DNA from: Alphaproteobacteria bacterium
Lineage (GTDB): Bacteria > Pseudomonadota > Alphaproteobacteria > Rs-D84
Assembly: GCA_017409215.1 (NCBI GenBank)
Contig: JAFQTD010000007.1
Coordinates: forward strand, 6,850-70,849
Direction of reading: 5' to 3'
Length of the DNA stretch: 64,000 nucleotides
Each line of letters opens with the position of its first letter. The first letter of the stretch is position 1. This document shows, in pieces, positions 17,810-52,118 of this stretch. The notes under the pieces were generated by a model. It did no database searches. It was given only the letters and a program-made list of their open reading frames with translations, and was not told the DNA's origin. The translations under genes were made by a program, and so were the position numbers.

Positions 17810-19786
17810 CTACATTACGCCACACATATTATCAAAATCTGCAACAAATTTCGTCAGTGTTGCATCGCATGGAAATTTTGTTGACGGGCAAACCTCTGCC
17901 CACACCTGCACAAGACTTTTTCCACTATCTGCCGTCAATAATTTATCTGTAAATTCATTAAGTTTTTTTCCCGTCCCAGATATCCTGGACAATGATCTTT
18001 CCAGTCCCAGCACTGCCGTATTCGCTGCGCTTCTCATTTTATCTGCAACCTTTGTAATTTTAGTTGTTTTCCCCACAGTTTTTAAAACCTTTTGGGCATT
18101 ATTTGCCGATGTATTAAATTTATTCGTCAGCGTATCACCAACTGTTTTTGCACTCGAAGCAGCATTACTAAACCACGTTGGCACAGACAGCACCACCCCA
18201 ACCAGCGCGACTGCATCACCAATCTTGGCAACATTTTGCCAACCACTTTTATCTGCACCATCTGCAATTTCCTGCAAACACACCGGATACATGGTTCCCG
18301 CATCAGCACTTATCAAGGCTTCAATTAAAAACAACGCTGTTTCTGCATCTTGTTCTGCAAATACCCCCTCATATTCTACCATTGCCTTAGCCAGCCCTTG
18401 AACCGCTTCTCTTGCGCACGCACAACTATTAGGCCTTACCACCTGTACAACATTTGGATCAACAGAATGTTTTATTCCACCACATTCAGTTATTAAACAC
18501 TTATTCGCCCCTAACAATGCCGCGCTGAACCTAGAATCCATAATTAAATTTGCAGTAACTGACGTAACCGTTCCAATCGCAGTCGCAACACCACCAATGA
18601 TTGCAACAACCGCCATTGCACTGCCACCACCCGTCGCCGGTATAGTTAAAATCCCTACCGCCACACCTACTGCCGCCACAGTCATATTTTTTATAGTCTG
18701 ACCAGAATTATATTTTTTTTGCGCCTTCAAGACACAGCCACCCTTATCCAAATTCCACTCAACATCTACACCATTATTTGTTCTAAGCAATTCACACATC
18801 TGTTCATCAAATCCTGCACACACACCTTTCTCAGATGCGCTGCCCCCAGATGCCGCACACGCCAGCATTGCATTTCCTGCCTCTACTGTTTTTTCCTTTG
18901 TATCTGCCGCATCATCAAAAACAAACCCGATATTTACTGAGATATTCATATTTCTGTCCACATCATGATACGTCACAGAACAAGGCAAAAAATCATCCAA
19001 TGACAACATACTGTTTCTTACTTTTATTGTGCTGGACGCGCACGAAAAATTATTAACAGCCAATCCTGACATCGCAAACCTAAGAATTGTATAATCTGCC
19101 AGATAATCTTTAACAGATATCAAATCCTTGATTTGTAAATCTGCAAACACATTTGGATTTATTACCTCGTGGCCATTATAAGAAAACTCCCAATCATCCG
19201 CATCAAAATCATCTGCATCAAATTCAGCAACAAATTTATAATGGGCCCGAACAACAGTTTTTTGATTACCGACTACCTGCTGTTCTTTCTCTGGCACCCA
19301 TTCAGGATACATACCAAACTGTTTTAAATCATTCCACAAATGCGCCGATTGCACCCCAGTCAATTCAGCGTTCATATAACACACCCCAGAATCATGGGCA
19401 CTTTGTCCGCCATACATTTTACAAATTGCAGTCCTAACAGATGTACGTTCTCTGTCAACTGCCCCTGCGGGTAAATCAAAGCTTTTAAATTCGAACACAT
19501 GCGATTTTCCGGTGTTATCCAGATAAATATAATGATTATCTGCAGCAGACTTTTTTAAATTTCCCTTCAATTCATAATAAACAGATTGCGTATCACGAAC
19601 ATCTGACTTCATTGCAACCTTAATTAGCCCACGTGCAGCCTCATCTTGAACGACCGCATCTGCAAATAATTGACATGTCCCCCTAACACCAACATCAAAG
19701 CAAGGATTACCCGCAGCAGCTGCAACAGAAACAGAAAAAAAACACATCGTAATCACAGATAAAAATTTTGCCATTATTCTCTGCAT
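17810..19786 (-). CDS. hypothetical secreted/membrane protein (658 aa) with Gly-zipper-like hydrophobic segment
   Basis: Signal peptide ...FFSVSVAAAAG. VAAVGVAVGILTIPATGGGSAMAVVAIIGGVATAIGTV. Alternative ATG 19774 forms a TAATG overlap with the upstream stop. Confidence 0.65.
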   Translation of the reverse strand: MQRIMAKFLSVITMCFFSVSVAAAAGNPCFDVGVRGTCQLFADAVVQDEAARGLIKVAMKSDVRDTQSVYYELKGNLKKSAADNHYIYLDNTGKSHVFEFKSFDLPAGAVDRERTSVRTAICKMYGGQSAHDSGVCYMNAELTGVQSAHLWNDLKQFGMYPEWVPEKEQQVVGNQKTVVRAHYKFVAEFDADDFDADDWEFSYNGHEVINPNVFADLQIKDLISVKDYLADYTILRFAMSGLAVNNFSCASSTIKVRNSMLSLDDFLPCSVTYHDVDRNMNISVNIGFVFDDAADTKEKTVEAGNAMLACAASGGSASEKGVCAGFDEQMCELLRTNNGVDVEWNLDKGGCVLKAQKKYNSGQTIKNMTVAAVGVAVGILTIPATGGGSAMAVVAIIGGVATAIGTVTSVTANLIMDSRFSAALLGANKCLITECGGIKHSVDPNVVQVVRPNSCACAREAVQGLAKAMVEYEGVFAEQDAETALFLIEALISADAGTMYPVCLQEIADGADKSGWQNVAKIGDAVALVGVVLSVPTWFSNAASSAKTVGDTLTNKFNTSANNAQKVLKTVGKTTKITKVADKMRSAANTAVLGLERSLSRISGTGKKLNEFTDKLLTADSGKSLVQVWAEVCPSTKFPCDATLTKFVADFDNMCGVM

Positions 19787-20817
19787 TCTGGATACTCCGT
19801 AATTTTATTCAAATTTTCATAACCGATTATAATATCATTATATCTATCATTTGCGATTAATGCATCATTACAATTTTGAATAATATCATCCAGCAACGTA
19901 ACCGCATCTGCACGTACAGATTCTATTTTACCATGTATTTGCTTTCTATTACCTGCATTAATTGCCAAATTTGCGGCAATACTTGCAACTGCCGCCACAG
20001 CAACCGCCGTTGTTGCACCTTTTATTTTGTTTTCTATTTTTTCTTTATCTGCCGCCCATTCTGCTGCATCTTCACTGTTTTCATCGGACAATGCGCGCGC
20101 CACAGAAGTAAATGCACCATCCGTCTTGCCAATTGCCTCATCATCGTACAAGCCGGCTGTTGCACTATCTAAAATTTCTTCACTTTCCACCCCAGGCTTC
20201 AATCCCAAAGACTCTTTACGCGCCTTCAAATCTGCCGCCAATGTTTTATACTCGCCCACCAAAGACATCAATTCATTCCCCCCTGGCAACTCTATTGCTA
20301 TTTCACCACCTGCAACTCTTTTTCCATCCGCCCAATCACAGGCAAATGTTGCCAAATAAGCTTTCATTTGCATTTCTGCATCTTCCATTGATTTTTTTTC
20401 AGACAATGCGGATGCTAATTCCATACCACCAATTCCCATCGCCGCCATTGATGCGCCACCCAATAATTTATTTGCTGTTGACCGCTCATTTTCACGCGCG
20501 GCATCATATTCAGCCTGTGCATCATCGACCTTTTGCTGTTGCCATTCAGCCAGACTCATTTCTTCAAATGAATTTATTTCTTGTACTGCCTTTTCCAGCA
20601 TTTGATACAAATCGCGTCGTTCCTGGTTGCGTGATGTTGACCAACCAAGGTTTTCAACTAAATAATTTAGGTATTTTACATCATCAAAAACCTGTGCTGT
20701 CTCGGGATTATCTTTTGCATCTGCAGCCTTTAAATAATCATCTACCGCATCAGCAAGCGCCCCGTATGACACACACAGGGCAACAGTCAGCATAAAGACA
20801 CGAAATATATTCAACAT
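19774..20817 (-). CDS. hypothetical secreted protein (about 347 aa), coiled-coil plus Ala/Gly-rich hydrophobic segments
   Basis: ATG 20817 gives MLNIFRVFMLTVALCVSYGALA (the ORF-track start 20844 is TTG). Contains GGASMAAMGIGGMELA and TTAVAVAAVASIAANLAINAG. Confidence 0.6.
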   Translation of the reverse strand: MLNIFRVFMLTVALCVSYGALADAVDDYLKAADAKDNPETAQVFDDVKYLNYLVENLGWSTSRNQERRDLYQMLEKAVQEINSFEEMSLAEWQQQKVDDAQAEYDAARENERSTANKLLGGASMAAMGIGGMELASALSEKKSMEDAEMQMKAYLATFACDWADGKRVAGGEIAIELPGGNELMSLVGEYKTLAADLKARKESLGLKPGVESEEILDSATAGLYDDEAIGKTDGAFTSVARALSDENSEDAAEWAADKEKIENKIKGATTAVAVAAVASIAANLAINAGNRKQIHGKIESVRADAVTLLDDIIQNCNDALIANDRYNDIIIGYENLNKITEYPECRE

Positions 20818-20912
20818 CTCTCTACACGATACTAGCAAATTCAAAAAATCAACACAACAAGAATATATTTATCTGGACAAATAAAAATGATTTCTATAAA
20901 ATATCCATCATT

Positions 20913-20986
20913 GCGGGCGTGGTATAATGGCAGCACGTCAGCTTCCCAAGCTGAAGACGAGGGTTCGATTCCCTTCGCCCGCACCA
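20913..20986 (+). tRNA. tRNA-Gly (anticodon CCC), CCA encoded
   Basis: Acceptor gcgggcg/cgcccgc, anticodon loop ttCCCaa (20945-20947), T arm gaggg-ttcgatt-ccctt. Confidence 0.95.
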
Positions 20987-21110
20987 AGAATTCAACCGGC
21001 CTTGTGCCGGTTTAATTGTTGGCTATGCGGCGTTGGAATTGAACCCGACCAAGAGGGTTCGGGGCGTCAGTTGACGAGAACAAGTAAATACGCAGTTCGA
21101 GTCTTACGTA

Positions 21111-21172
21111 GCGAAAGGGGCCCATGGAGTGAAAACGAACATGGGAATCAGACATTCCCTTCGCCCGCACCA
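21111..21172 (+). repeat. 62-nt unit ending in a copy of the tRNA-Gly 3' end (copy A)
   Basis: gcgaaaggggcccatggagtgaaaacgaacatgggaatcagac plus attcccttcgcccgcacca. The last 19 nt are identical to 20968-20986. Confidence 0.9.
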
Positions 21173-21297
21173 CCAATTTTCACCGCAGTGATAGCAAGGG
21201 CTGAAAATTGAGTGCCTCGCCGTAGCATTGCTCGAAACAATCTAAATAACTTTACATTTATCGGCGAAGGCGGGCTTGACAATCATATAAAATCTTT

Positions 21298-21359
21298 GCG
21301 AAAGGGGCCCATGGAGTGAAAACGAACATGGGAATCAGACATTCCCTTCGCCCGCACCA
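21298..21359 (+). repeat. 62-nt unit ending in a copy of the tRNA-Gly 3' end (copy B)
   Basis: Identical to 21111-21172. Followed by agaatt plus a hairpin and about 75 nt resembling the flank after the real tRNA (20987-21063). Confidence 0.9.
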
Positions 21360-21464
21360 AGAATTAATCCGACCCCTGTGGTCGGATTTATTATTGGATT
21401 GTGGCATTGGAATTGAACCCGACCACAAGGATTCGAATACCCCCAAACAATAATTCATTTATAA

Positions 21465-21491
21465 CAAAAAATCCCCCACACATGGTGGGGG
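21465..21491 (-). terminator. rho-independent terminator of the giant gene
   Basis: Minus strand reads cccccac-catgt-gtggggg followed by attttttgtt, 12 nt after stop 21503. Confidence 0.8.
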
Positions 21492-21502: not shown

Positions 21503-24500
21503 TTATTGATAATCATTCACAACCGAATAAGTCGTATTATCAACATCTTTGACCTTTAATTTTCCGGACAATGCTGTACTCATTGCGCCATAAAAGATAT
21601 CGTCACCAACCCTCACATTCAATGCGGGCGACGTTCTTGGCGAACTACGCAGATATATAACTTCACTGCCTGCATGCAGTTTTCGTCCACAGTCATCTGC
21701 TTCATTTGCACCAAAACCATACCCGATTGTTGTCAATGGTGCAACACACTGACCACGATTTGCACTGATACTGCCCTGCGGAACTATACCGCCGGTGCCA
21801 TAATACCCCGCACCAACATTTTCACACACACCACCAGCTGTTGCTACATATTCACCAGCCCCACAATAAATCATACAATCCGACACCACATCATGCTCTG
21901 TCGCAGTGTTTCCAACAATCCCATAGCCAGAATTTGCCTTAAATATCTGCAGGTTCGCAACATTCTTGTCTAGTATCGCCTGTCTTGTTGCCGTTGTTGA
22001 ACCATCTACACTACGTAATGCCAGAACCAACAAATATTTCGCATCAACCGGTGTCCTATAAACAAAACCTTTATCAACAGCTCCTGCATCTACAAAACCA
22101 GAAACCTGAACACCTGTTGCAGGCTCTGACGTAGTTGTTCCAACAAACATACTACCCTTTCCTCTCATTCCACTAATTTGATAAATAGTATTTCCTTCGA
22201 CTGGAACAAAAACCACAGCATTGTTCTCAAAGGCAGTTAACCCAACTGCATTTGTGGAATTAAAGTAGCCCCAATACATTCCATAGTCATCTGCATTAAA
22301 CAAGTTTTCACCAACTGCGCATGTATTAACTGTTGATACACCACCTTGTTTTACGGTATTTGCGCCGACATACCAGTTTCCACTTGGTGTTGTACATGTT
22401 GTTGCATTCGCGGTTGCAATCTGAGTACCCGCCGGACACGATATTGCGCAATCATTCGAACTATCGTGATCTGTCTGCGTTGTTGTACTTGGTGTTGCAT
22501 AGTTCGTCAAACAAGACTTCTTATTCGTCCCAGATGTCCCCCCTGCTGAAACAGTATGTTGTGCACTATACCAAGACCCACTTGGCGTTGTACACGCGGC
22601 ATCTATATTGGCAACAACCTTACCAGCCGCACATGTAATCGTACAATCAGACTTTGCATCATGACTCGTTGCTGTTTCATTATTCACTGTCGCATAGCTT
22701 GTTGGACAACTACTTACTTTACTCAAGCTCTTTGATGTACTGCCGTATGCAACAATATGCTCTGCGGTATACCAACTTGCGCCATAGGCTGTATTATTCG
22801 GCGTACTACACGCTGCATTCGCGGTCGCAACCATTGTACCTGCCATACAGGTTGTCTTGCAACTTGCGGCGCCTGCGTGATCTGTTGCTGTTGTACCCGA
22901 ATTGCTGTACCCCTTGTCTGTGGCACAGGCTGAACAAGCACCCGCCCCAGGATCAGAGTACTGATTCGCCCCACATGTATCACAGCTGGATGTACTGCCG
23001 TATGCAACTGTATGCGCGCCTTTATACGTACCAGCCGCACAATTTGTCGCACTGGTTGCATTTGTGCTTGCAACATATTTACCACTCAGGCTATTTGTAT
23101 AACACGCACTTGCACCACCACTATTGCCAGCCGTACTGTTTGGATAGAACCCACTTGCCAATCCACTGCATGCACTACATGCCGTACCATTTACATAGTA
23201 ATTTGCATTTGCCTTCAACGCAGTTGTCACACTTGATGCACCCCACTGTGTCGAACTGGTCGCCGTCTGTGTAATACCACCGCTTGAACAATTTGCAGGC
23301 TTTTGGCTCTGCTTACAGCTTGTATATGTTGTCCACCCAGTGCCTGTACTATCTACCTTGGACCAACCGCTGGTCAGGGCAGGGCAACTGGTACAACTTG
23401 CCGCACCAGCCGCAGAATAAGACCAGTTCGCACATGTATCACAGCTGGACGTACTGCCGTATGCAACTGTATGCGCGGCCTTCGCAGTTCCCGCCGCACA
23501 AGTCGACAATGTAGAACTATTTTCAGTCCCAACATATTTACCATCTGCGACACTTATCTTGCACTCAGATTGTGTCTTCAAGCCCGTACCACCTGCGGTA
23601 TAACTGCCCGGACAGTCTTTATTGCCACCAACATTGTCATAATACAGTGTCACAGCAGGGCAATAATCACCACTTGGGCATGTTGTCAGCGCAAGATCCG
23701 ATGCTGCTCTTAAATAACTGCCCGCCGTTGTTGTAAAGTAGCAATCCGATCTTGCATCAGACCCTGCTACGCTATTCTTATACAGTCCCCCACCTAATGC
23801 AGCGCAACTATTCGGACACGACGTTGACGACCCTTCTGTATCCGCATAACAACCCGCAGTGACCTTTGTTTGTGCGCTTGCGCCAGCAGGTGCATAATAC
23901 CCAGCATCTGCAATGGTTTGTACAACCGCACCATCAGGACTATAATAACCCGCACTTGTTTTACCACAAACCTTGCCGTTCATACAATCTACGCCTTTAC
24001 ACGATGCATAATCTCTCCCTGAAACCCATTCGTCTGCGGTCTCTATAATCGAATAGTATCCACCTCCACACGCAGTTGGCGCATACGTTTGACAGCTACT
24101 ATTTGCGCCACCGTATGTACCATCTGTCTTGTTATAATAACACAATGTTCTGAACGTAGCAGTACTATCTACGTCATTAAAAAGCGCATAACAACCACCA
24201 ATAGAACCATGAATATTATTTGTCCACCAACCACTATATCCTGACACACGATTTGCCAATTCTCCTGTTACCGCTGGACATTCTGAACACGCAGACGCAC
24301 CAGCCCCTGAATACAACAAGCGCCCATTTGCCCCAGTCCCAGTTGAACAACTGCCACACGAATACCCTGATACACACGTTCCTGTCGCTGTTGTTCCACC
24401 GCCCGCAGAATAATATCCCGCACTGACATTACCAGTCACAGCTGTGGTCGCAGTTTGCGCGACATCACTTACAGCCTCGCAATATTTTCCCCCTGGGCAT

Positions 24501-27500
24501 ACTGCGCAACCTGCACCTGCGGTTGGCACATAATATCCTGCTTCACAACTAAGCTTGCAACTTGCGGCACCTGCGTGATTTTCCGCCACATCACCCGAAT
24601 TGCTATACCCCTTGTCTGTGGCACAGGCTGAACAAGCACCCGCCCCAGCATCAGAGTACTGATTTGCCTCACAAACATCACAGCTGGACGTACTGCCGTA
24701 CGCAACTGTATGCGCAGCCTTCGCAGTTCCCGCCGCACACTTATCCCAGTTACTGCTATTATCACCAGCTGTACCAATATAATAACCATCGCTAACTGTT
24801 ATTTTACAACTCGCAACCCCAGCATGTGATGCTACTGTTGTACCACTATTCTTATAGTCTGTTGGACATGCTGTACAACTGCTTGCACCAGCATCAGAGT
24901 ACTTATTATCCGCACAAACATTTGGACATTCCGTAGTAGCACCAGCACTACCATAACATCCAGCACTAATCGCAGAACAGCTTGTTGCAGTACTACCATT
25001 CGTTGCTTGATAAGTACCCGCCGCACAGGCTGTACAAGAACCAGTCGTATTTGTTCCTGCGGCACTAGAATATTTTGACCCCGCCTTACAGTTAGAAATC
25101 TTGCACAGATTTGTTACCTTGTTTGCAGACCAACTTGGCGTTGCCCAACTATTATCATAATCATTATTATTTGCACACGCACTACATGTTGCCGAAGTAT
25201 TCCCCGTTGCAGTGGTTGTTGTACCTGCTGCACAGGCTGTACATGCCGTATTACCTGTATCAACCGCATAAGAACCTATGGCACACGCAACACACGCACT
25301 TGCTGCCGAAGAACCTGTACTTGCATTATACTTACCTGCGGCACATGGTGTGCGTCCACCTGTACTATTATAATTAACCTTTACACTACCTGGACAATAA
25401 CCACCGGCAGCACATGTTGTTTCATCTGCCTTTGCGGTCGCAATATACTTCCCCGCCGTCGTTATACCATAACAAGCTGTATTTGTAGTGGCTCCCTCAG
25501 CAGACGTAGTATAAAAATCACCCAACGTTGTACAGGCATTTGCCCCCCAAGATTCTTCGTAAGTACCTGTATTACATACCGGCACTGTTCCACCAGGACA
25601 ATAACTATTCTCCGGACATTTTACCGCTTTTTTATAAAGCATACTCTTTGTATTAGGTTGTCCATTTGTAGTACAATATGTGCTACTATAACGTTCTGTT
25701 AAATAATAACCAGCCTTAACACTTCTTGCATATACACTTCCCTTATCTGAATCATAACGACCTGTCGTTGAATTGTACCTCGCACTCTCAACACTAAAGT
25801 TTGAACATGGTGTTGAAACCGTCATTATAGCCGGACATTGTGTTATCGCACTCAAGCCCGTATTCGAAAAAGTCTGATAACCAGATGACACCACAGATGA
25901 ATTAGACGTAGTTGCATCAGGACAACGCGCAGTCAACCAATCTATTTCGCTTACAGTTTCCTTATATGTACTACTTGCTGGATCAGGACAACTCTCTCTG
26001 CCACCTACACTTGGATACCCCAAAATCACAGCTGGGCAATAATACTTTGCCTCGCACTTAGTTTGTGCTTCATCTGTTGAATTTGCAACATAATACCCAC
26101 CAGTTGTTATTACATAGCAATCCGCTGGCGCGCTAGAACCTTCTGCACTATCCTTATACAATCCGCCCCCTAATGTAGAGCATGCTGTTGGCTCACTCAC
26201 TCCCTCAGAACAATAACTGCCTGCAGGACATGTTGCAGAACCGCCTGTTGTGTTACGTCCACTAACTGTTCCGCCCTTATAAACAGTACTGCCACCTGCA
26301 CAATATTTTCCTGCTGGACAATCCACCTCGCCAGCCCCGACTTCCTTTACGTACTTGGTCGCACTGGTTATCAAATAACAATCATTTTCATCATCAGAAC
26401 CAGCTGCAGATCGCGAATATGGCACCGCACATACATTCAATCCACCACCATTCGTACCAGACTTGCCATAATAAACCATCGTAGCAGGGCAGTAATTGCC
26501 ATTCGTACACCCAGTTTGTGTAGAACTATTTGCGGTCGCAATATACTTCCCCGCCGTCGTCGTACCATAACAGTCACTTGCTGCATCAGAACCAGTTGAA
26601 TCTGTTGTTGTATAGAAACTGCCCAACGTTGTACATGCGGTTTGCGTTGTTGCGCCTGTTATCGCAACATAATTGTTCTTGTCTGCGATTGTACACGCAA
26701 CCGTCCCAGCACTTGCCTTATAATATCCTTTTGCACACGCAGTACAACTGCTTGCGCTTGTTCCACCATATCCCGCCGCACATACACACGCAGATGACGA
26801 TGTTGCTGTTGTCGTCGTAGTTGTCGTATTTGCATACGTGGCACTACATGCGGTCTTATTCAGCCCACCTGTACAATAATTTCCTGTACCACATACTGCG
26901 CAAGAAGTATTTCCATTTGCAGACGTTCCATAATACCCCGCATTACACGTCCATGGGCACGATGACGAAGTATTTCCTGTTGCGCTTGTATAAACCGCAT
27001 TTTCTGGTTTATTCGAACACGCAGTACGTCCTTGGATTTGACCATTATAAGAATACGACACAGCAGTACTTGGGCAATAATACCCAGATTCACAGACCTT
27101 GCACGCTGTCACGTTCAAGTATTCACCCGCCTTGCAGTCATATCCATTTATTGTCCATCCTGCATACAGTGTTGCATTTTCTGTTTTGTTCCAATTGCGC
27201 GCGCTGGCACCTGCCGCCGTATAATACTGCACCCCGGCTGCATAATCCGCATTATCATACCAACCGACAAACGTATAACCGGCGCGGGTTGGGGCGGTTG
27301 TACTAATCGCAGGCATTGCCGCCGCATATGTCGCGGTCACATTGGCACTTTGTCCACCTGTACCACCATTTACATTAAACGATACAGTGTATGTCTTTGC
27401 GGTACATGTTGGGGTTGCTGTATCTGCATTACCAAGCGTATAACCCGCACTACACGATGTCGTATAATCAACATAACCATACGTTTTTATTTCCAACGAA

Positions 27501-30500
27501 CACGTACCACCGACCGGCACAGTACAATTCCTGGCCCAGGCCGCATACAAAGTACTTGCGCCTGTAATCAACCATGATTTACTTGAATCTGCCGCAGTAC
27601 CATCAGTCGAAAAGTATCTGGTATTGCTGCTGTTATCAGATGAAACGTCATCTAAATCCTCTACATAAAATCCGCGGAAAGTATAACCAGTACGTGTCGG
27701 CACGATATTCGCTGTTGTCGTGTATGCGGTTGTACAGTTACTATTTGCATACCATGTACCACTTCCTGTCTTTTTATACAGGGTTTTCACACTGCCCTGG
27801 GTACCACCATTTGCATTCAGCGTCACCGCATTACAATTCGCATTCCATTGTGCGGTCAGGGTAATCGCAGAACCCGTACTTACATTTTTCAGACTGCCAC
27901 CCGCAGCAATAATATCACCATCACACGCGGTTGTGCCACCTGTACACTTCCAACCCGCAAAGGTATAACCTGTACGTGTATATGTGTTCGCTGGCGCGGC
28001 ACAATCCGAACCATATGTGCACGATGTCGGTGATGTTGGTGCAGAACCACTGCCACCATTCGCCGCATAGGATACAGTATATGTATTCGCGGTCCATTGT
28101 GCGGTCAGGGTAATCGCAGAACCCGTACTCACATTCTTCAGACTGCCACCTGCGGCGATAATATCACCATCACACGCGGTTGTGCCACCTGTACACCTCC
28201 AGCCCGCAAAGGTATAACCTGTACGTGTATATGTGTTCGCTGGCGCGGCGCAATCCGAACCGTATGTACACGATGTCGGTGATGTTGGCGCAGAGCCACT
28301 GCCACCATTCGCCGCATAGGATACAGTATATGTATTTGCGGTCCATTGTGCGGTCAGGGTAATCGCAGAACCTGTGCTTACATTCTTCAGACTGCCACCT
28401 GCGGCGATAATATCACCATCACACGCGGTTGTGCCACCTGTACACTTCCAGCCCGCAAAGGTATAACCTGTACGTGTATATGTGTTCGCTGGCGCGGCAC
28501 AATCCGAACCGTATGTGCACGATGTCGGTGATGTTGGTGCAGAACCACTGCCACCATTCGCCGCATAGGACACAGTATATGTATTCGGAACACATTGTGC
28601 CGTTGACGGAACCGACCCGAACACCGCAGCCCGGAATGCGAGAGAGTTCGTAGCATTGCTCCGCAGGGGGTCCGCACAGCCTTGCGCACAGGAGTCCGCG
28701 CAATTGTCGACACTGACGTTGTAGTCATAGTTGAACACCCACGAGCCAGACAAGCTTTGTACACTGCCACCAACCGGCGTATAGCCATCCAAAGTACAAT
28801 AACAATATTGACCCGTACTGTCCGGCAGGGTGGAACTTATCGTCACATCACCTTCCCATACCGCGGTACCAGATTGACTGCTGCATTGCGCACGACCCGT
28901 TATACTGCCCAAATCACCATAATCAACACTAAATGTCATAGTTGATGAATCATTTGTATAATCATCCCCACGAACTGTGCCAATCGTACTGTTCAGGTCT
29001 ATGCCACTGCCTGGTTGTACACTGTACCCGCTTGCACACCCCGTCGCATCACATGCATTCGTGCCATCTGAATATACGCGTCCGCTGACCGTCGTCGCAT
29101 TCAATACATCCGATGCAGTACACGCACGATAACAATCGCTTTCCGAATCAGAACCCGCATCACTGTTGCCATAGCCAGATGGACAGGCACTCTGTCCTTG
29201 AATTTGTCCGTTATAAGTATACGAACCACCTGTACAATACGACCCCGCCATACATGTTACACAGCCATCCCCATTCAAATACTGCCCCGCCGAACAAGTA
29301 TATGTATATGCGGTACATGTTGGGGTTGCTGTATCCTCGTCCGCGATTGTATAACCGTTTGCACAGCTGGTTATATAATCAACCTGGCCCATTGATCCAA
29401 TTGATATTGAACACTTTCCATGTTCTGGCACTTCACAATCCTGAACCCACGATGCATATAATGTCTTGTTTGTTGATATAAGCCACCCGTGCGCAATAGT
29501 TGTTGTGCCAATCAGCGGTGGCACCCCACCATCATAGTCTGATGTTATGTCTGCGTATTCATCGGACAGATTATCCGGATAGAAACCACGAAATACATAC
29601 CCAGAACGTGTTGGAACCAATGTAGACAAATCTGAAAGTGTCACTGTACATGAACTGTCCGTAAACCAACTATCTTCGCCCGTTTTTTTATACACAGTCA
29701 CAACACTGCCTGATGTACCACCATTTGCATCTAATGTCACCGCATTACAACGCGGATTCCAGTCAATTGTAAAGTCAACTGATGTCGGCACAGAAACCCT
29801 TTGTCCAGGCAACGCAGTCACAGTGTTCGATGTACCATTATTCATAAATGTACCATGCCATGGCCCTGCAATTACATAGCCATCGCGCACAGGTGCCGGT
29901 ACCGGTGAATAGGTTGCAGATCCACTCCACTGTGCATACCATGTCGGGTTTTCATTGGCTGAAACCAATGCTGTCATACCATCTGTTGTAATATAACCAT
30001 TGGCATCAATATATTGCGTACCACCACTGGGGGCGCTGTAATACCCCATAAACACAAGTTGATCCAAACGAACCCTTGTCGGTTCAACCGTACCACCATT
30101 CGCATCAAACGTCAATATTGGCACATTTCTTGGTATTGTTATTGGATATGTCTCTGGTGTCATTGTTTGGGTCATCGCAGAATCCAAGTACACACGTGCG
30201 GCCCCCAATCGACCATACAAGGCACTTGTACCATTTGATGTTGCGAAATTATTATTCAACGTAATAATTGCAGTCGCAACACACGCACCCGACGCATATA
30301 CCCCACCAGACGTATATCCATCTGCACATTGATAATGCGCATACCACGTTGTATCCGCCGAAACATTACAACTGGTCGACGTGCTCAAGACCCCAGTTGA
30401 CGATATACACTGCGTCCCAGTATTTGCACTGTTGGTGCTGGTCAAATAATGCCCCAGATATGATGCATTGGCCTTGCTTGGCACCGTCACAGATGTAATG

Positions 30501-31951
30501 GCAGTACTACATGACGAATCGCTATAGTATGTGGTTGAACCTGTCTTTTTATATACCGTTGTTGTGCCACCCGACCCACCGTTCGTGGTATTGTTTAACG
30601 TTATTTTATTACATCTGACACTCCAGTTTGCTACCAGCTCTATCCCGTTCCAGCTTCCTACATCACTTCCGGAATATCCAGAAAACATATCCGCCCCCGG
30701 TGCAAACCTACCAATACGAACACCATCAGCACTAGCAGTCCAACTCGAAAAATTATAACCTGTCATGGTAAACGTATTCTCTGGCATAACACATGTACCG
30801 CCGATAATACAATATGTTGGACTGGTTGGGGCGGTGCCACTGCCACCATTTGCATTATAAGTTATATAAATACATCCATTACTTTCGCCACCATAATTTG
30901 TCGGAATGCATGGCCAATCAGCCAACCCCGTTGCCCCTGTATACATACCACCAACATGTGTAGTTGTTGCGCTTGGCCAAACATCATATATATATTCGCC
31001 ATTAATTTTCGCAGACGGTCCACTTAAATTCGTACAACCATTAAACATATTGGCAAAAGCATAATGTTGTATTGTGCCTGTTATATTTCCAAATAAATTT
31101 TCAGGAATCGACGTTAATCCAGTACATCCCCTAAAAGTGGCCGAAAAAGTATACGGCATAATATTACCACTGATACCCGCAAACAAATTGCTTGGGATAC
31201 TGGTCAGCCCACTATGCTGAAACGCCCCATTAAACATAGCACCTGTGGAAAAACCGGTTATCCCAGAAAACAATGTTGACGGAACAGTTCTCAAATTAGT
31301 CGCATACGCAAACAAATTATTAAATCTTGGATTAGTTGATAATGTCCCAAAAACACTACCCAAACTGCCACTAACCGCTGTAATCATCGCAGCATTTGCC
31401 TGTTTTTCAGCTTCAGTTGAACCAGAATAAAAAGTTATCGCCGGCATTGAATAATTCGTATCGTTATAATTTGTTGCCTGACCACTTATCGTTATCGTCT
31501 TTGTGCCTGTGCTAGTATAAGTATGAGGATACCTAGTATTTGTTGTATTATCCGTTCTATCAATTTTCTCAACCACACTGCTGTCCCCCCACTTCACATA
31601 AAAGACACCAGCCGCAGACATATTAAAGGCAAAAACAGTACCAGAAGTAGGTACATTAATTTTCAATGTAAACTCATTTTCAACCATATTTTTTGGACAT
31701 ACCGTGCCCCCAGTACATTCATAGTATGCACTGCTGGTCGCGGCAGGACATGCCCTGCAACTATTCCCTGCGGCGGGGCTGGCTATTGCACGCCCATCCC
31801 TGTACGACCCACAATCTGACAAATAATATCCCGCATCACACGAAACATACGTTTTGGCACTATTACACGTAAAACTGCCCGCAAACGCCCCCCCGTCAAA
31901 CGATAAAAAAGCCACAAAAAACAATGCAAACGTACGTAAAAATCTGAACAT
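21503..31951 (-). CDS. giant secreted cysteine-rich surface protein (3482 aa): PKD-like plus BspA-type LRR module, Listeria-Bacteroides repeats, long CXXC-repeat region, Cys-poor C-terminal segment
   Basis: Uninterrupted 10.4-kb ORF. AAGGAAGGAAAG SD. Signal peptide MFRFLRTFALFFVAFLSFDGGAFA. Motifs are detailed in the findings. Confidence 0.9.
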   Translation of the reverse strand: MFRFLRTFALFFVAFLSFDGGAFAGSFTCNSAKTYVSCDAGYYLSDCGSYRDGRAIASPAAGNSCRACPAATSSAYYECTGGTVCPKNMVENEFTLKINVPTSGTVFAFNMSAAGVFYVKWGDSSVVEKIDRTDNTTNTRYPHTYTSTGTKTITISGQATNYNDTNYSMPAITFYSGSTEAEKQANAAMITAVSGSLGSVFGTLSTNPRFNNLFAYATNLRTVPSTLFSGITGFSTGAMFNGAFQHSGLTSIPSNLFAGISGNIMPYTFSATFRGCTGLTSIPENLFGNITGTIQHYAFANMFNGCTNLSGPSAKINGEYIYDVWPSATTTHVGGMYTGATGLADWPCIPTNYGGESNGCIYITYNANGGSGTAPTSPTYCIIGGTCVMPENTFTMTGYNFSSWTASADGVRIGRFAPGADMFSGYSGSDVGSWNGIELVANWSVRCNKITLNNTTNGGSGGTTTVYKKTGSTTYYSDSSCSTAITSVTVPSKANASYLGHYLTSTNSANTGTQCISSTGVLSTSTSCNVSADTTWYAHYQCADGYTSGGVYASGACVATAIITLNNNFATSNGTSALYGRLGAARVYLDSAMTQTMTPETYPITIPRNVPILTFDANGGTVEPTRVRLDQLVFMGYYSAPSGGTQYIDANGYITTDGMTALVSANENPTWYAQWSGSATYSPVPAPVRDGYVIAGPWHGTFMNNGTSNTVTALPGQRVSVPTSVDFTIDWNPRCNAVTLDANGGTSGSVVTVYKKTGEDSWFTDSSCTVTLSDLSTLVPTRSGYVFRGFYPDNLSDEYADITSDYDGGVPPLIGTTTIAHGWLISTNKTLYASWVQDCEVPEHGKCSISIGSMGQVDYITSCANGYTIADEDTATPTCTAYTYTCSAGQYLNGDGCVTCMAGSYCTGGSYTYNGQIQGQSACPSGYGNSDAGSDSESDCYRACTASDVLNATTVSGRVYSDGTNACDATGCASGYSVQPGSGIDLNSTIGTVRGDDYTNDSSTMTFSVDYGDLGSITGRAQCSSQSGTAVWEGDVTISSTLPDSTGQYCYCTLDGYTPVGGSVQSLSGSWVFNYDYNVSVDNCADSCAQGCADPLRSNATNSLAFRAAVFGSVPSTAQCVPNTYTVSYAANGGSGSAPTSPTSCTYGSDCAAPANTYTRTGYTFAGWKCTGGTTACDGDIIAAGGSLKNVSTGSAITLTAQWTANTYTVSYAANGGSGSAPTSPTSCTYGSDCAAPANTYTRTGYTFAGWRCTGGTTACDGDIIAAGGSLKNVSTGSAITLTAQWTANTYTVSYAANGGSGSAPTSPTSCTYGSDCAAPANTYTRTGYTFAGWKCTGGTTACDGDIIAAGGSLKNVSTGSAITLTAQWNANCNAVTLNANGGTQGSVKTLYKKTGSGTWYANSNCTTAYTTTANIVPTRTGYTFRGFYVEDLDDVSSDNSSNTRYFSTDGTAADSSKSWLITGASTLYAAWARNCTVPVGGTCSLEIKTYGYVDYTTSCSAGYTLGNADTATPTCTAKTYTVSFNVNGGTGGQSANVTATYAAAMPAISTTAPTRAGYTFVGWYDNADYAAGVQYYTAAGASARNWNKTENATLYAGWTINGYDCKAGEYLNVTACKVCESGYYCPSTAVSYSYNGQIQGRTACSNKPENAVYTSATGNTSSSCPWTCNAGYYGTSANGNTSCAVCGTGNYCTGGLNKTACSATYANTTTTTTTATSSSACVCAAGYGGTSASSCTACAKGYYKASAGTVACTIADKNNYVAITGATTQTACTTLGSFYTTTDSTGSDAASDCYGTTTAGKYIATANSSTQTGCTNGNYCPATMVYYGKSGTNGGGLNVCAVPYSRSAAGSDDENDCYLITSATKYVKEVGAGEVDCPAGKYCAGGSTVYKGGTVSGRNTTGGSATCPAGSYCSEGVSEPTACSTLGGGLYKDSAEGSSAPADCYVITTGGYYVANSTDEAQTKCEAKYYCPAVILGYPSVGGRESCPDPASSTYKETVSEIDWLTARCPDATTSNSSVVSSGYQTFSNTGLSAITQCPAIMTVSTPCSNFSVESARYNSTTGRYDSDKGSVYARSVKAGYYLTERYSSTYCTTNGQPNTKSMLYKKAVKCPENSYCPGGTVPVCNTGTYEESWGANACTTLGDFYTTSAEGATTNTACYGITTAGKYIATAKADETTCAAGGYCPGSVKVNYNSTGGRTPCAAGKYNASTGSSAASACVACAIGSYAVDTGNTACTACAAGTTTTATGNTSATCSACANNNDYDNSWATPSWSANKVTNLCKISNCKAGSKYSSAAGTNTTGSCTACAAGTYQATNGSTATSCSAISAGCYGSAGATTECPNVCADNKYSDAGASSCTACPTDYKNSGTTVASHAGVASCKITVSDGYYIGTAGDNSSNWDKCAAGTAKAAHTVAYGSTSSCDVCEANQYSDAGAGACSACATDKGYSNSGDVAENHAGAASCKLSCEAGYYVPTAGAGCAVCPGGKYCEAVSDVAQTATTAVTGNVSAGYYSAGGGTTATGTCVSGYSCGSCSTGTGANGRLLYSGAGASACSECPAVTGELANRVSGYSGWWTNNIHGSIGGCYALFNDVDSTATFRTLCYYNKTDGTYGGANSSCQTYAPTACGGGYYSIIETADEWVSGRDYASCKGVDCMNGKVCGKTSAGYYSPDGAVVQTIADAGYYAPAGASAQTKVTAGCYADTEGSSTSCPNSCAALGGGLYKNSVAGSDARSDCYFTTTAGSYLRAASDLALTTCPSGDYCPAVTLYYDNVGGNKDCPGSYTAGGTGLKTQSECKISVADGKYVGTENSSTLSTCAAGTAKAAHTVAYGSTSSCDTCANWSYSAAGAASCTSCPALTSGWSKVDSTGTGWTTYTSCKQSQKPANCSSGGITQTATSSTQWGASSVTTALKANANYYVNGTACSACSGLASGFYPNSTAGNSGGASACYTNSLSGKYVASTNATSATNCAAGTYKGAHTVAYGSTSSCDTCGANQYSDPGAGACSACATDKGYSNSGTTATDHAGAASCKTTCMAGTMVATANAACSTPNNTAYGASWYTAEHIVAYGSTSKSLSKVSSCPTSYATVNNETATSHDAKSDCTITCAAGKVVANIDAACTTPSGSWYSAQHTVSAGGTSGTNKKSCLTNYATPSTTTQTDHDSSNDCAISCPAGTQIATANATTCTTPSGNWYVGANTVKQGGVSTVNTCAVGENLFNADDYGMYWGYFNSTNAVGLTAFENNAVVFVPVEGNTIYQISGMRGKGSMFVGTTTSEPATGVQVSGFVDAGAVDKGFVYRTPVDAKYLLVLALRSVDGSTTATRQAILDKNVANLQIFKANSGYGIVGNTATEHDVVSDCMIYCGAGEYVATAGGVCENVGAGYYGTGGIVPQGSISANRGQCVAPLTTIGYGFGANEADDCGRKLHAGSEVIYLRSSPRTSPALNVRVGDDIFYGAMSTALSGKLKVKDVDNTTYSVVNDYQ
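27839..28585 (-). repeat. three near-identical in-frame 249-bp tandem repeats (83 aa each) inside the giant gene
   Basis: NTYTVSYAANGGSGSAPTSPTSCTYGSDCAAPANTYTRTGYTFAGW(K/R)CTGGTTACDGDIIAAGGSLKNVSTGSAITLTAQW occurs three times. Period 249 nt, also visible in the antisense ORF track (27848/28097/28346). Confidence 0.95.
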
Positions 31952-32056
31952 TATTCCTACTTTCCTTCCTTATTATAGCCATATCATAGAAAAAAAACAT
32001 AACATTAGACAAGCAAAAAAAAAGATAATTCGTATAAATAATCCTAAATAAAAATA

Positions 32057-32084
32057 TTGACCATATAAAAAAAAATGATACTAT
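32057..32084 (+). promoter_or_regulatory. sigma-70 promoter of rnpB
   Basis: TTGACC (32057-62), N16, TGaTACTAT extended -10 (32076-84). Predicted start lies just before RNase P helix P1. Confidence 0.55.
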
Positions 32085-32096
32085 GCCCAATCGTAC

Positions 32097-32420
32097 GATG
32101 TATGGGGCATGGCTGGTCCCTTAAAAAGACCAGAGGAAAGTCCGGACTGCATGGGACAACGCACCGGCTAATATACCGGGCAGGGCGACCTGACGATTAG
32201 AGCAACAGTGACGTAAACGATTAAATTCGAGTGAAACGGGCAATCTCTGCGTGCAGCAACTTCAAATAGGCTCCACATACGGGTCCCACGTTTGGGGCGG
32301 GTAGAAGGCTTGACATTTCTTAGTAATAAGATTTGCAGATTAATCATGTCCACTACCACAGTCTGGTTTGCGAAACAAACTGGGCCGTCGGCAGAACAGA
32401 ATCCGGCTTATATGTACATC
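32097..32420 (+). ncRNA. rnpB: RNase P RNA (bacterial type A)
   Basis: P4 strands GAGGAAAGTCCGGAC (32133-) and ACAGAATCCGGCTTA (32396-). P1 pairing gatgtat/gtacatc. Ends are approximate. Confidence 0.9.
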
Positions 32421-32425
32421 TGCAA

Positions 32426-40114: not shown

Positions 40115-40128
40115 TTATGGGGGCAGAT

Positions 40129-41337
40129 ATGCGAAAAATATTATTTGCTGTGATTGGATGTTTTTCTGCGATATGCGCACAGGCAGCCCAGATTGCAAAT
40201 TTAGACTATGTACACAAATCGATTCAACAAAAGTGGGACATAACTATACCGATTAAGGCCGACAGTCCAATGCAGGCTGCGAATATGAAATATCTGCTGA
40301 CGGCGGTGGATGTCGCGAATGAAATTTTAAACGGTGAAAAGACCACCGACTATGGTAATGGCGAATTTGCGACACTTCAGGCCGCCGACACAGTTGCAAC
40401 AATTCAGGCAGTGGAAACGTTGGTGCGGAAAATTGATAAAGGTCCAGAATTCACCCTGACCACCACACCGGACACCAGCAGTTTTAGTTTTTCAATCAGT
40501 GCGGCGGGCGAATTTGTGGTTGACTGGGGCGATGGCACAGTCGAAACAATCACAAAACCAGACACAACAGATACAACATATACGCATAATTACGACACTG
40601 CCAATACATACACAATCGGCCTTAGCGGTCAGGCAACTGCATATAATTTCAGCAAATACACCGCCGCGATAAGTTTTCGTGTTGGTTCTAACACAAGTGC
40701 GAAAGAAACCAACGTAAAAAAAATCGCATCAATTGATGGCTCGTTGGGGGCAATATTTGGAACGCTAACCAGAAGCGCATATAACCAACCACAATTTTAT
40801 GAGACTTTTTCTGGCGCATCCAATATAACCTGTTCAATCCCCGCAAAACTATTTACTGGTATATCTGGCGCACCAGCAGAGGATATGTTCCGCAGCACCT
40901 TTTCTAATTGCAGTGGTTTGACATCAATTCCTGCGGGTTTATTTGCAGGTATATCTGGCGCACCAGCACCTTTGATGTTCGACAGCACCTTTTCTGGTTG
41001 CAGTGGTTTGACATCAATCCCATCTGACTTATTCGCGGGTATATCTAGCAACCCAGCAAGTCATATGTTCAGATTCACCTTTAAAAATTGCAGTGGTTTG
41101 ACATCAATCCCTGAAAACCTGTTTGGGAATATTTCTGGTACGGCACAGTATCAAATGTTTGAAGGAATGTTTATGGGTTGCACATCTCTAACTGGACCAT
41201 CTGCGCGTATAAATGGGCAATACCTGTACGAAATCTGGCCAACGTACCCCGGTTGGTTTTATGGGGCATATATTGGTTGTACAGGACTTAGTGATTATGC
41301 CACAATGCCGACCATGTGGAAAACAGACGATGATTAA
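40129..41337 (+). CDS. BspA-type leucine-rich-repeat surface protein with PKD-like domain; paralog of the giant protein N-terminal module
   Basis: Signal peptide MRKILFAVIGCFSAICAQA (alternative ATG 40117). FSFSISAAGEFVVDWGDGT...YTHNY...YTIGLSG. Four 30-aa repeats F..TF..CSGLTSIP..LFAGISG. Confidence 0.8.
   Translation: MRKILFAVIGCFSAICAQAAQIANLDYVHKSIQQKWDITIPIKADSPMQAANMKYLLTAVDVANEILNGEKTTDYGNGEFATLQAADTVATIQAVETLVRKIDKGPEFTLTTTPDTSSFSFSISAAGEFVVDWGDGTVETITKPDTTDTTYTHNYDTANTYTIGLSGQATAYNFSKYTAAISFRVGSNTSAKETNVKKIASIDGSLGAIFGTLTRSAYNQPQFYETFSGASNITCSIPAKLFTGISGAPAEDMFRSTFSNCSGLTSIPAGLFAGISGAPAPLMFDSTFSGCSGLTSIPSDLFAGISSNPASHMFRFTFKNCSGLTSIPENLFGNISGTAQYQMFEGMFMGCTSLTGPSARINGQYLYEIWPTYPGWFYGAYIGCTGLSDYATMPTMWKTDDD
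40798..41157 (+). repeat. four in-frame 90-bp BspA-type LRR units
   Basis: tgcagtggtttgacatcaat(t/c)cc recurs at 90-nt spacing (near 40910, 41000, 41090). Confidence 0.8.
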
Positions 41338-49504: not shown

Positions 49505-49505
49505 C

Positions 49506-51785: not shown

Positions 51786-51862
51786 TGGTGGATGTGATTG
51801 GACTCGAACCAACGACCTCTTCGATGTGAACGAAGCGCTCTAACCAACTGAGCTACACATCC
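51786..51862 (-). tRNA. tRNA-Val (anticodon CAC)
   Basis: Reverse complement ggatgtgtagctcagttggttagagcgcttcgttCACatcgaag...ggttcgagtcc...cacatccacca. Confidence 0.95.
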
Positions 51863-51900
51863 GAAAATTCCAACAAAAAACGCCATATTCTGGCGAATTG

Positions 51901-51987
51901 TGGTGGGGATAGTGGGACTTGAACCCACACGGTCGCAATGACCAAAGGATTTTAAGTCCTCAGCGTCTACCATTCCGCCATATCCCC
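51901..51987 (-). tRNA. tRNA-Leu (anticodon TAA), long variable arm
   Basis: Reverse complement ggggatatggcggaatggtagacgctgaggactTAAaatcctt...gggttcaagtccc...tatccccacca. Confidence 0.93.
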
Positions 51988-52012
51988 GAAGACTTATACA
52001 CAACTAAAAAAT

Positions 52013-52088: not shown

Positions 52089-52118
52089 AAAACTGCACCA
52101 TCCAAAACTGACGAAGCA

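Follow-up and report, generated by a model that had tools for sequence, protein, structure and literature searches.

Fibrillar adhesins, the class of Monzon et al. (PMC8286594 / PMC9210967), are defined by length, a repetitive stalk, an adhesive region, and Thr richness (PMC9210967), and giant repeat adhesins are already known as a kind. Further points of comparison are the PARCEL/DUF285 surface proteins (Roske et al. 2010, PMC2996958) and the Ephrin_rec_like domain PF07699 (formerly GCC2_GCC3), which is regarded as an early-eukaryote domain whose rare bacterial cases have been ascribed to horizontal gene transfer (HGT, PMC6993872). Here, we compare with these systems a 10.4-kb gene at positions 21503..31951 (minus strand) of a 64,000-nucleotide stretch of contig JAFQTD010000007.1 (assembly GCA_017409215.1), the whole of which is referred to as the window. 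The gene encodes a protein of 3482 amino acids (aa), referred to as the giant, in an alphaproteobacterium of the order Rs-D84. Genomes of Candidatus Enterousia (GTDB order Rs-D84) are mostly <1 Mb and have no tricarboxylic acid cycle, respiration, or standard transporters, and a partner-dependent lifestyle has been proposed for them (PMC12306168).

The sequence and predicted folds suggest that the giant is, on balance, probably a very long, Sec-exported, disulfide-rich surface protein of the fibrillar adhesin-like type. We favor this reading because its Flg_new, Ephrin_rec_like, PKD/PARCEL leucine-rich repeat (LRR), and carbohydrate-binding module (CBM)-like modules are of the extracellular type, because its length, repetitive stalk, putative adhesive region, and Thr richness match the definition of a fibrillar adhesin, and because an N-terminal head, a middle stalk, and a conserved C-terminal module reproduce the fibrillar-adhesin layout. 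The conserved ends, the variable middle, the conserved locus, and the absence of a transmembrane (TM) segment from the mature protein argue in the same direction. The protein is 3482 aa long, and its stalk comprises 8 Flg_new units and a field of Cys repeats spanning 1602 aa. Thr is the most frequent residue (482/3482), with Thr, Ala, Gly, and Ser being the commonest; Cys residues total 181, and no hydrophobic or TM segment was found in the mature protein.

Like fibrillar adhesins (e.g., those of Firmicutes with an Flg_new stalk), the giant is long and Thr-rich, has a signal peptide and a repetitive Flg_new stalk, carries putative binding modules far from its presumed anchor, and belongs to proteins that evolve fast by domain gain and loss. 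Unlike them, it comes from a diderm alphaproteobacterium, half of its stalk consists of ephrin-receptor-like rather than Ig-like repeats, and a novel C-terminal module stands in place of an LPXTG motif, an autotransporter, a type I secretion system (T1SS) signal, or any other known anchor. What is new, then, is an ephrin-receptor-like Cys-repeat stalk of up to several thousand residues in a bacterium, an uncharacterized conserved C-terminal domain in place of a known anchor, and a hypervariable core locus in an almost unstudied, reduced-genome gut lineage. Candidatus Enterousia (Rs-D84) is widespread in the guts of ruminants, horses, chickens, and humans, and dependence on a partner has been suggested for it. 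A 10.4-kb gene amounts to >1% of a sub-1-Mb genome; because that share is spent on one secreted protein, and because the locus is conserved in the lineage, the locus is an obvious candidate for a contact structure.

In the mechanism that we propose, the signal peptide, as read from the sequence, would take the chain through SecYEG/SecA, and the 181 Cys residues would be oxidized in the periplasm to give stacked β-hairpins of the ephrin-receptor/TNFR type. Judging from the family assignments and an AlphaFold2 (AF2)/Foldseek match, these hairpin repeats and the ~8 Flg_new domains would form a rigid stalk. Ligand binding may fall to the PKD/LRR-like head and to the CBM-like insert, a role suggested by fold class only; likely ligands would be glycans or proteins of a partner cell, of mucus, or of feed particles. 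The ~120-aa C-terminal module, to go by its position and conservation, might hold the protein on the envelope or guide it through. An adhesin role is plausible, and its target could equally be another microbe or the animal host.

Several points weigh against an adhesin. Surface exposure is an indirect assignment, since neither a known anchor nor a signal for outer-membrane secretion was found in the protein, and adhesion, location, and expression are predicted from sequence and models. The putatively adhesive modules were assigned by weak or family-level similarity, with no Foldseek match in the PDB at E ≤ 1e-3. The head and the insert are absent from most family members and therefore the core function of the family cannot depend on them. 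Lastly, no Dsb or secretion-system genes were seen in the domain scans of the window, and an adhesin reading does not explain how a protein with 181 Cys residues is oxidized and crosses the outer membrane in an organism with a small genome.

Modules of the giant

The modules of the giant are as follows, from the N-terminus to the C-terminus.

31880..31951 (-): signal peptide, aa 1-24, MFRFLRTFALFFVAFLSFDGGAFA, read from the sequence; relatives begin alike (MSRFLRxFAFL...FA followed by AGY)
31682..31879 (-): N-terminal Cys unit, aa 25-90, with 7 Cys; contains AGSFTCNSAKTYVSCDAGYY, the conserved mature N-terminus of the family
31469..31675 (-): PKD-like β-sandwich of six strands, aa 93-161 (VFYVKWGDSS...YPHTYTSTGTKTITISG); AF2 predicted local distance difference test (pLDDT) >93
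30887..31444 (-): LRR-like units of ~29-30 aa and a C-terminal cap, aa 170-355, of PARCEL/BspA flavor; AF2 pLDDT 95-99
29312..30871 (-): Flg_new block 1 with degenerate variants, aa 361-880 (units at aa 363-447, 633-677, and 752-839), weak in Pfam
28577..29311 (-): first Cys-rich block with a YCYC...WVF...C..SC..GC module, aa 881-1125, 16 Cys
27140..28576 (-): Flg_new block 2, aa 1126-1604; Pfam E 3e-42 in 4 stretches, also matched by TIGR02543
22334..27139 (-): Cys-rich field, aa 1605-3206, 1602 aa with 116 Cys (7.2%), a mosaic of hairpin repeats
21932..22333 (-): Cys-poor β-sandwich insert, aa 3207-3340, CBM/jelly-roll-like in the AF2 model
21506..21874 (-): conserved C-terminal module, aa 3360-3482, the family hallmark; AF2 pLDDT ~90

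The Pfam scan of the giant was run by segment and was permissive, to E ≤ 10, and homology searches used three segments instead of the full-length protein. The curated cut-offs are 27 bits for PF09479, 20.95 for TIGR02543, 23.1 for PF07699, and 30 for TIGR02167. The strongest domain evidence concerns the Flg_new repeats, for which the whole protein scored 138.6 bits (PF09479, E 7e-41, 6 stretches) and 86.4 bits with the Listeria-Bacteroides repeat model TIGR02543. A preliminary description of this DNA, made from its letters, had counted about ten Listeria-Bacteroides repeats; the family is strongly matched, but the count is 6 by Pfam or 8 by an iterative profile built within the protein. Block 2 holds five units (aa 1127-1209, 1210-1292, 1293-1373, 1393-1476, and 1523-1604), including three near-identical units of 83 aa. 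An old duplication is also visible, between aa 677-946 and aa 1314-1674 (40-47% identity). The YCYC module between the two blocks also forms the C-terminal extension of the relatives P0020-22 and L052 (labels L001-L080 denote the listed family loci in other genomes).

The Cys-rich field was described at first as about 1600 aa of CXXC repeats between nt 27150 and 22320. Its extent was computed at nt 27139-22334, or 1602 aa, in agreement with that description, and the Cys-rich repeats are indeed present, but the wording was loose in that literal CxxC motifs number only 20 in the protein. The field is composed of at least three ephrin-receptor-like/TNFR-like module types, each recurring four or five times. 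For PF07699, the whole protein scored 23.3 bits, which is marginal against the cut-off of 23.1, and aa 2101-2600 scored 32.6 bits in 5 stretches; the ELAPOR1 TNFR-like model, PF23091, was sub-threshold on the giant. A Pfam domain survey of 39 diverse members of the family gave PF07699 in 20 (best E 3.7e-10), Flg_new in 13, and the ELAPOR1 model in 6. With an AF2 model of the last units of the field, the top Foldseek matches in the PDB were Elapor1 and EphB6, at E ≥ 1e-3, and a PDB sequence search with the 1600-aa field returned nothing. The above-threshold PF07699 score, its presence in 20/39 relatives, and the Elapor1/EphB6 matches bear out the likeness to GCC2/GCC3 repeats that had been proposed. 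The furin-like (PF00757) and Giardia variant-specific surface protein (VSP, PF03302) resemblances proposed alongside it failed, with no match in any segment at E ≤ 10, nor in the 39 relatives.

Compared with the Cys repeats of Eph receptors and ELAPOR1 (PF07699, PF23091), those of the giant reach the PF07699 threshold and have Elapor1 and EphB6 as their top PDB matches. The relationship is nonetheless distant, with scores of 23-33 bits and a Foldseek E no better than 1e-3; the giant has no ephrin-binding, fn3, TM, or kinase part, and both codon usage and synteny mark its gene as native. Compared with Giardia VSPs and the immobilization antigens of ciliates, the giant is likewise secreted, with CxxC-containing Cys repeats, conserved ends, and a variable body, and to the eye, some members of the family (e.g., L048) bear a striking likeness to VSPs. 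It differs from those proteins in giving no VSP match, in having neither a TM helix with a CRGKA tail nor a glycosylphosphatidylinositol (GPI) signal, and in being encoded by one or two genes per genome as opposed to a large switching repertoire.

The N-terminal part begins with a signal peptide whose cleavage is read as falling between MFRFLRTFALFFVAFLSFDGGAFA and GSF; it is predicted to be of the Sec type, has an AF2 helix at residues 2-16, and is kept in full-length relatives. AF2 confidence is low for the Cys unit at aa 25-90, a region that the alignment used does not cover, whereas the model of aa 90-350 has pLDDT >95. The giant contains the PKD-type motif VKWGDSS...YPHTYTSTGTKTI and four ~30-aa units with the LRR-like motif F..tF.GC.gLtsIP..LF..i.G. 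Yet the head (aa 1-380) gave no Pfam match even at E ≤ 10, be it to PKD, PKD_4, LRR_5, or another model, and none in NCBIfam, including TIGR02167, and a PDB sequence search with the N-terminal 380 aa found nothing. Foldseek of the head model (pLDDT >95) against the PDB gave no match at E ≤ 1e-3 and no LRR, the PKD-like part having only generic β-sandwich matches.

The likely nature of the head can be read from its homologs. It is homologous to a stand-alone secreted family of 350-640 aa in the same bacteria (327 matches, from which 98 members were taken for a domain survey), and this family of at least 327 proteins from gut alphaproteobacterial metagenome-assembled genomes (MAGs) has several copies per genome. 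The PARCEL model TIGR02167 is found in 77/98 members (best E 1.4e-16), PKD (PF00801) in 21/98, PKD_4 (PF18911) in 17/98, and LRR_5 (PF13306) in 1/98, at E 0.005. Searched against the PDB, the head-family profile aligned with the LRR-type structure 4fs7 (E 1.2e-4), with the PKD structure 4xed (E 0.03), and with the FLS2 LRRs (E 0.03). We take 4fs7 to be a Bacteroides BspA-like LRR protein; its database title reads 'Uncharacterized protein'. The earlier assignment of a PKD-like segment followed by BspA-type LRRs is thus borne out in part, by way of the homologous family (PKD 21/98, TIGR02167 77/98, 4fs7), while the giant itself matches neither. By these profiles, the head appears to be PKD-like plus LRR-like, which is demonstrable at the family-profile level only, and PARCEL is a better label than BspA. 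The resemblance to PARCEL/DUF285/BspA LRR proteins (TIGR02167, LRR_5) consists of the F..C..Lt.IP motif, the 77/98 head-family members, and the 4fs7 alignment. In contrast to those proteins, the unit of the giant is ~29-30 aa rather than 23-26, its four units fall below all curated thresholds, and they make up only a small head instead of the whole protein. A stand-alone paralog of the head is present in the window at 40117-41337 (+); this secreted protein of 406 aa is 43% identical to the giant over 283 aa and passes TIGR02167 with 33.4 bits (cut-off 30).

At the other end of the protein, a Cys-poor C-terminal segment had been noted. The motifs quoted for it are present, but the segment is actually two modules, a CBM/jelly-roll-like insert and the conserved hallmark module. 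Against the PDB, the insert gave weak Foldseek matches to CBM35, CBM29, IFT25, and a GH101 CBM; against the predicted viral structures of BFVD, it matched phage distal-tail, tail-fiber, and neck-passage decorations (best E 1.5e-5). The insert is limited to the closest relatives (L001, L004, P0001-3, and P0007). The C-terminal module has the consensus C..G.Y..C.NVGAGYY...R..C..LTTIGYG.GANEA.DCGRKLH.G...IYLRS..RTSP.L.V.VGD..FYG..ST...G.LKV.....YSVVNDYQ-COOH and is laid out as one Cys hairpin unit followed by a β-strand-rich region of ~65 aa. No counterpart of this module was found in Pfam, NCBIfam, PDB sequences, or PDB folds; a PDB profile search gave noise only (E 0.4), and Foldseek of the AF2 model of the insert and C-terminal module against the PDB gave no match at E ≤ 1e-3. 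As had been noted at the outset, no autotransporter barrel, RTX, or sortase signal was found in the Pfam/NCBIfam scans. Searches of Pfam, NCBIfam, and the sequence itself also found no LPXTG, SLH, LysM, type IX secretion system (T9SS) C-terminal domain (CTD; Por_Secre_tail), or lipobox in the giant, and the predicted N-terminal Sec-type signal is inconsistent with a T1SS. The C-terminal module, which resembles no known domain, could serve diderm bacteria as a new kind of anchor or sorting signal.

This module also raises an alternative to which we assign a low probability, namely that the giant is a released soluble protein, either a polymer-binding scavenger or a distant effector, with the C-terminal module as a secretion signal that may be removed. 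A conserved, β-rich C-terminal module on very different Sec-signal cargos recalls T9SS sorting logic, and TM segment and lipobox are both absent. Indeed, T9SS cargo of Bacteroidota is similarly diverse and often giant, with a Sec signal and a conserved C-terminal β-rich domain of ~100 aa. However, the T9SS CTD models are unmatched, the phylum is another one, the cargos per genome are far fewer, and T9SS genes were not seen. To our knowledge, no T9SS is known in Alphaproteobacteria. Furthermore, one or two carriers per genome make a dedicated pathway unlikely in genomes that are mostly <1 Mb, and the Pfam and NCBIfam scans of the giant turned up neither an enzymatic nor a toxin domain.

A family with conserved ends at a core locus

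Sequence searches indicate that the giant belongs to an undescribed family restricted to gut alphaproteobacteria (Candidatus Enterousia); no description of it was found in the literature searched on the lineage or on Ephrin_rec_like/GCC2_GCC3. Membership of this Enterousia Cys-rich family is defined here by the C-terminal module, the N-terminal unit, and the core-locus position. The C-terminal module was scanned against one genome per species (185,579 species), which gave 115 loci, 80 of them listed. A second search, against 1.84 billion cluster representatives, bounded the family at 692, 447, and 230 representatives at E ≤ 1e-3, 1e-10, and 1e-30, respectively. The best independent relatives by C-terminal module had E 1e-114 to 1e-18. 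In the 150 representatives with the best scores, the module is carried by proteins of 128 to 5452 aa and stands at the extreme C-terminus in nearly all. The hallmark C-terminus is ...YSV(V/Y)(N/D)D..-COOH, and the giant ends in ...YSVVNDYQ. At the other end, a unit A(A/G)GYTCPxYKKYTSCxSGYY follows the signal peptide in 24/35 open reading frames (ORFs) not cut by the locus start; the version in the giant is AGSFTCNSAKTYVSCDAGYY.

Nearly all of the 80 listed loci come from gut MAGs classified as Alphaproteobacteria, Candidatus Enterousia, or 'uncultured Rickettsiales', with sheep, yak, buffalo, roe deer, horse, chicken, and humans as sources. One contig (L018, CAZJGX010000004.1) is binned as 'uncultured Muribaculaceae' and has an N-terminus typical of the alphaproteobacterial family, which is probably a binning error. 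The 80 best loci fall in ~72 genomes, mostly with one or two copies per genome. The nearest locus, L001, is from a sheep-rectum MAG whose DnaK protein is 99.5% identical to that of the window.

Between the two ends, Cys repeats occur in any number and Flg_new units number 0-12, and few members have the PKD/LRR head. The minimal member, of 498 aa, consists of the two ends and five Cys units. Even between the window and L001, the inside of the gene is only patchily collinear. Module duplication, loss, and shuffling remodel the middle of these proteins, and the ends stay conserved.

This pattern is also what would be expected of a variable surface coat or antigen, a disulfide-stabilized layer whose diversity serves escape from IgA, phages, or predators and in which the binding modules are incidental. 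Such a layer would resemble in its working the Cys-rich variant surface proteins of Giardia or the immobilization antigens of ciliates. The conserved ends around a hypervariable middle at one core locus, the shuffling of modules between close relatives, the 498-aa members made of Cys repeats and two ends only, and a Cys-repeat chemistry shared with the variant coats of eukaryotes all fit such a coat. Nevertheless, we consider it unlikely. Most of the ~72 genomes have only one or two copies (80 best loci), neither a silent cassette archive nor switching machinery is in the window, the VSP Pfam model is unmatched and the C-terminal TM helix with CRGKA tail is absent, and a rod of 3482 aa would be costly as a coat. 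A variable protective coat does not exclude adhesion.

The position of the gene is conserved as well. In at least 18 loci (blastn), the family gene has the RNase P RNA gene, rnpB, as its immediate, divergent upstream neighbor, and beyond rnpB a tolQ-tolR-tolA-like cluster follows in 10 loci; the rnpB and tol sides are also found in the window. Downstream and on the same strand, secA is present in 37/80 loci at a median gap of 532 nt (e.g., at 3751-6363 in L005), followed by dnaE and rsmH, and 13 loci show both the rnpB and the secA sides. The product encoded at the rnpB/secA locus is 498 aa long in L050, 3342 aa in L061, and 3482 aa in the window. In the window, secA is not downstream; the downstream side is rearranged here and in L001, with breakpoints that coincide with repeated tRNA-Gly 3' fragments. 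That the largest Sec substrate of a genome adjoins secA may reflect coincidence or co-regulation. No secretion or anchoring partner was recognized among the neighbors, the recurrent ones being housekeeping genes (rnpB, secA, dnaE, tol), as is the remainder of the window.

A bolder proposal, which we regard as conceivable but doubtful, is that the C-terminal module, the signal peptide, and the first Cys unit constitute a new, Rs-D84-specific envelope-anchoring or sorting system, and that the locus encodes the principal, rapidly re-tooled attachment organelle of these bacteria. If this were true, a partner-dependent bacterium would hold its host cell or partner microbe via the product of the rnpB / gene / secA locus, and this attachment organelle would consist of disulfide-rich repeats of a kind that is elsewhere deemed eukaryotic.

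The tRNA-Gly region downstream of the gene has features of its own. A tRNA-Gly(ccc) gene lies at 20913-20986 (+), and its 3' end, ATTCCCTTCGCCCGCACCA, recurs at 20968, 21154, and 21341, with a spacing of ~187 nt. In the same region (20913-21440), a 68-nt direct repeat (21111-21178 / 21298-21365, 97% identity) lies downstream of the tRNA gene. The tRNA-Gly 3' repeats coincide with the synteny breakpoint relative to L001 and may be remnants of integration or recombination. A genomic island at tRNA-Gly was considered for the giant and ruled out by the rnpB-adjacent position, which is conserved across the genus, and by the native codon usage. A polymorphic toxin was ruled out as well; the C-terminus is conserved, the body is variable, and a toxin domain is absent.

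The host is a diderm with a lipopolysaccharide outer membrane, a gut alphaproteobacterium of the Candidatus Enterousia type. The following genes in the window mark it as such.

46557-47144: GcrA, an alphaproteobacterial cell-cycle regulator
55241-57173: LpxA and LpxB

The window also contains TolQ/ExbD-type genes, a TolA/TonB-like ORF, and housekeeping genes. The alphaproteobacterial host named in the preliminary description is supported by GcrA, LpxA/LpxB, and TolQ, and by the occurrence of relatives in MAGs that bear the name Alphaproteobacteria or Ca. Enterousia. In such an envelope, the giant might instead be a structural protein of the envelope or periplasm, a disulfide network that strengthens a reduced-genome envelope, with the C-terminal module binding the outer membrane or peptidoglycan from inside. 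This idea, by analogy and not homology with the Cys-rich OmcA/OmcB complex of chlamydiae, would account for the very high Cys content, the Sec signal with no recognizable outer-membrane export signal, and the location of the gene, which in many genomes is beside tolQ/tolR and a TolA/TonB-like neighbor. We find it improbable, as Flg_new, PARCEL/LRR, PKD, and CBM-like modules are typically extracellular and a length variation of 498 to >5000 aa is unlike that of a structural component. Moreover, the window encodes the peptidoglycan-remodeling proteins AmiA-like amidase, LysM, and M23, with which a wall substitute would not be needed.

Integrity and origin of the gene

The signals around the coding sequence, together with the upstream neighbor and a tandem repeat within the gene, are given below.

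32097..32424 (+): RNase P RNA gene (rnpB; Rfam RF00010, 161.6 bits), divergent upstream neighbor
31983..32012 (-): sigma-70-like promoter candidate TTGTCT-18-TATGAT from a consensus scan, a match to the consensus only with function not implied
31960..31970 (-): purine-rich, Shine-Dalgarno-like sequence AGGAAGGAAAG, 8 nt before the ATG at 31951, read from the sequence
27836..28587 (-): DNA tandem repeat of 249 bp in 3.0 copies (95% matches), the site where other assemblies break
21463..21491 (-): intrinsic terminator CCCCCAC-CATGT-GTGGGGG followed by ATTTTTTG, read from the sequence

The ORF at 21503..31951 (-) starts with ATG and runs for 3482 codons with no internal stops. The promoter candidate lies inside the gap of 146 bp between rnpB and the start codon. 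The terminator hairpin of 7 bp (6 GC) with its T-run (21491-21473) begins 12 nt past the stop codon. A single 10.4-kb ORF with a Shine-Dalgarno sequence, a signal peptide, and a terminator had been described, and all of these were located in the sequence. Likewise, the motifs quoted for the short Cys module, the PKD/LRR segment, and the Cys-poor C-terminal segment were all found in the translation where they had been placed. The rnpB-giant intergenic region (31972-32096) also holds T runs (T9-T12) near the promoter-like site, which could support slipped-strand phase variation.

The gene could in principle be an assembly artefact, that is, a repeat chimera, or else a recently acquired eukaryotic gene; this alternative is close to refuted. 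The contig stems from a short-read style assembly (k141_993898), and other assemblies break at the 249-bp repeat, the truncated ones inside or just after the 3 x 249-bp array. However, the frame is open over 10.4 kb, an identical 3482-aa product is found on three public contigs of 50-200 kb, and three further assemblies contain exact C-terminal substrings of 2100-2200 aa, starting at aa 1275, 1377, and 1389. In addition, independent MAGs encode relatives of 3000-5452 aa that share both ends. Because of the identical product in three contigs and the giant relatives with the same ends in independent MAGs, a chimera is very unlikely, and the copy number of the 249-bp repeat is the sole soft point of the assembly.

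The case for a eukaryotic import is that PF07699 is described as eukaryotic in origin and its rare bacterial occurrences as HGT (PMC6993872). The gene itself, however, has native GC content at third codon positions (GC3, 0.345 vs 0.30-0.42 in neighbors) and similar synonymous choices, and it adjoins rnpB in at least 18 loci. The raised overall GC of the gene comes from codon position 2 (0.61), and this excess therefore reflects amino-acid composition. Relatives of the Cys field were sought with aa 2201-2520 as the query. All strong matches were metagenome proteins, of which the sole named one is from an Alphaproteobacteria MAG, and PF07699 proteins from elsewhere, including a single eukaryotic-source protein (EukProt), matched only at E ~1e-4. 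The preliminary description had suggested a host-interaction adhesin that mimics eukaryotic surface proteins and had raised eukaryote-to-bacterium transfer as a question for phylogeny; in view of native GC3 and codon use, a lineage-conserved core locus, and a eukaryotic match at only E ~1e-4, mimicry gained by such a transfer is not supported. Recent transfer from a eukaryote is not supported because codon usage is native and eukaryotic matches reach only E ~1e-4, and an ancient transfer of PF07699-type repeats to the lineage is possible. The expansion of the Cys repeats is native, and the repeats are of long standing in the lineage; a repeat type usually deemed a eukaryotic invention has thus been expanded natively in a bacterial lineage.

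Other genes in the window

Two overlapping ORFs, at 17810-19786 (-) and 19774-20844 (-), encode signal-peptide-bearing proteins of 658 and 356 aa, neither of which matched a known family; in its middle, the longer one contains a hydrophobic stretch rich in Gly/Ala/Val/Ile, a possible membrane span. The two products are 60-66% identical to their L001 counterparts despite the 99.5% identity of DnaK and look like fast-evolving envelope or secreted proteins. Near the family gene, these ORFs are found in L001 and L027 only.

A 952-aa ORF at 52333-55191 (+) has a signal peptide, 3.6% Cys, and no Pfam/NCBIfam match, and is a candidate lineage-specific secreted protein. The ORFs at 44029-46545 (-) and 49485-51344 (+), of 838 and 619 aa, have no Pfam match and show weak, coiled-coil-type similarity to SMC/Rad50 models. 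None of these three ORFs showed kinship to the family of the giant. Four tRNA genes (Val-cac, Leu-taa, Ala-cgc, and Leu-cag) are clustered at 51786-52205 (-). Finally, an ORF at 62151-63287 (+) carries a PcfJ-like domain, of a conjugative-plasmid family, and is a possible mobile-element remnant in this small-genome lineage.

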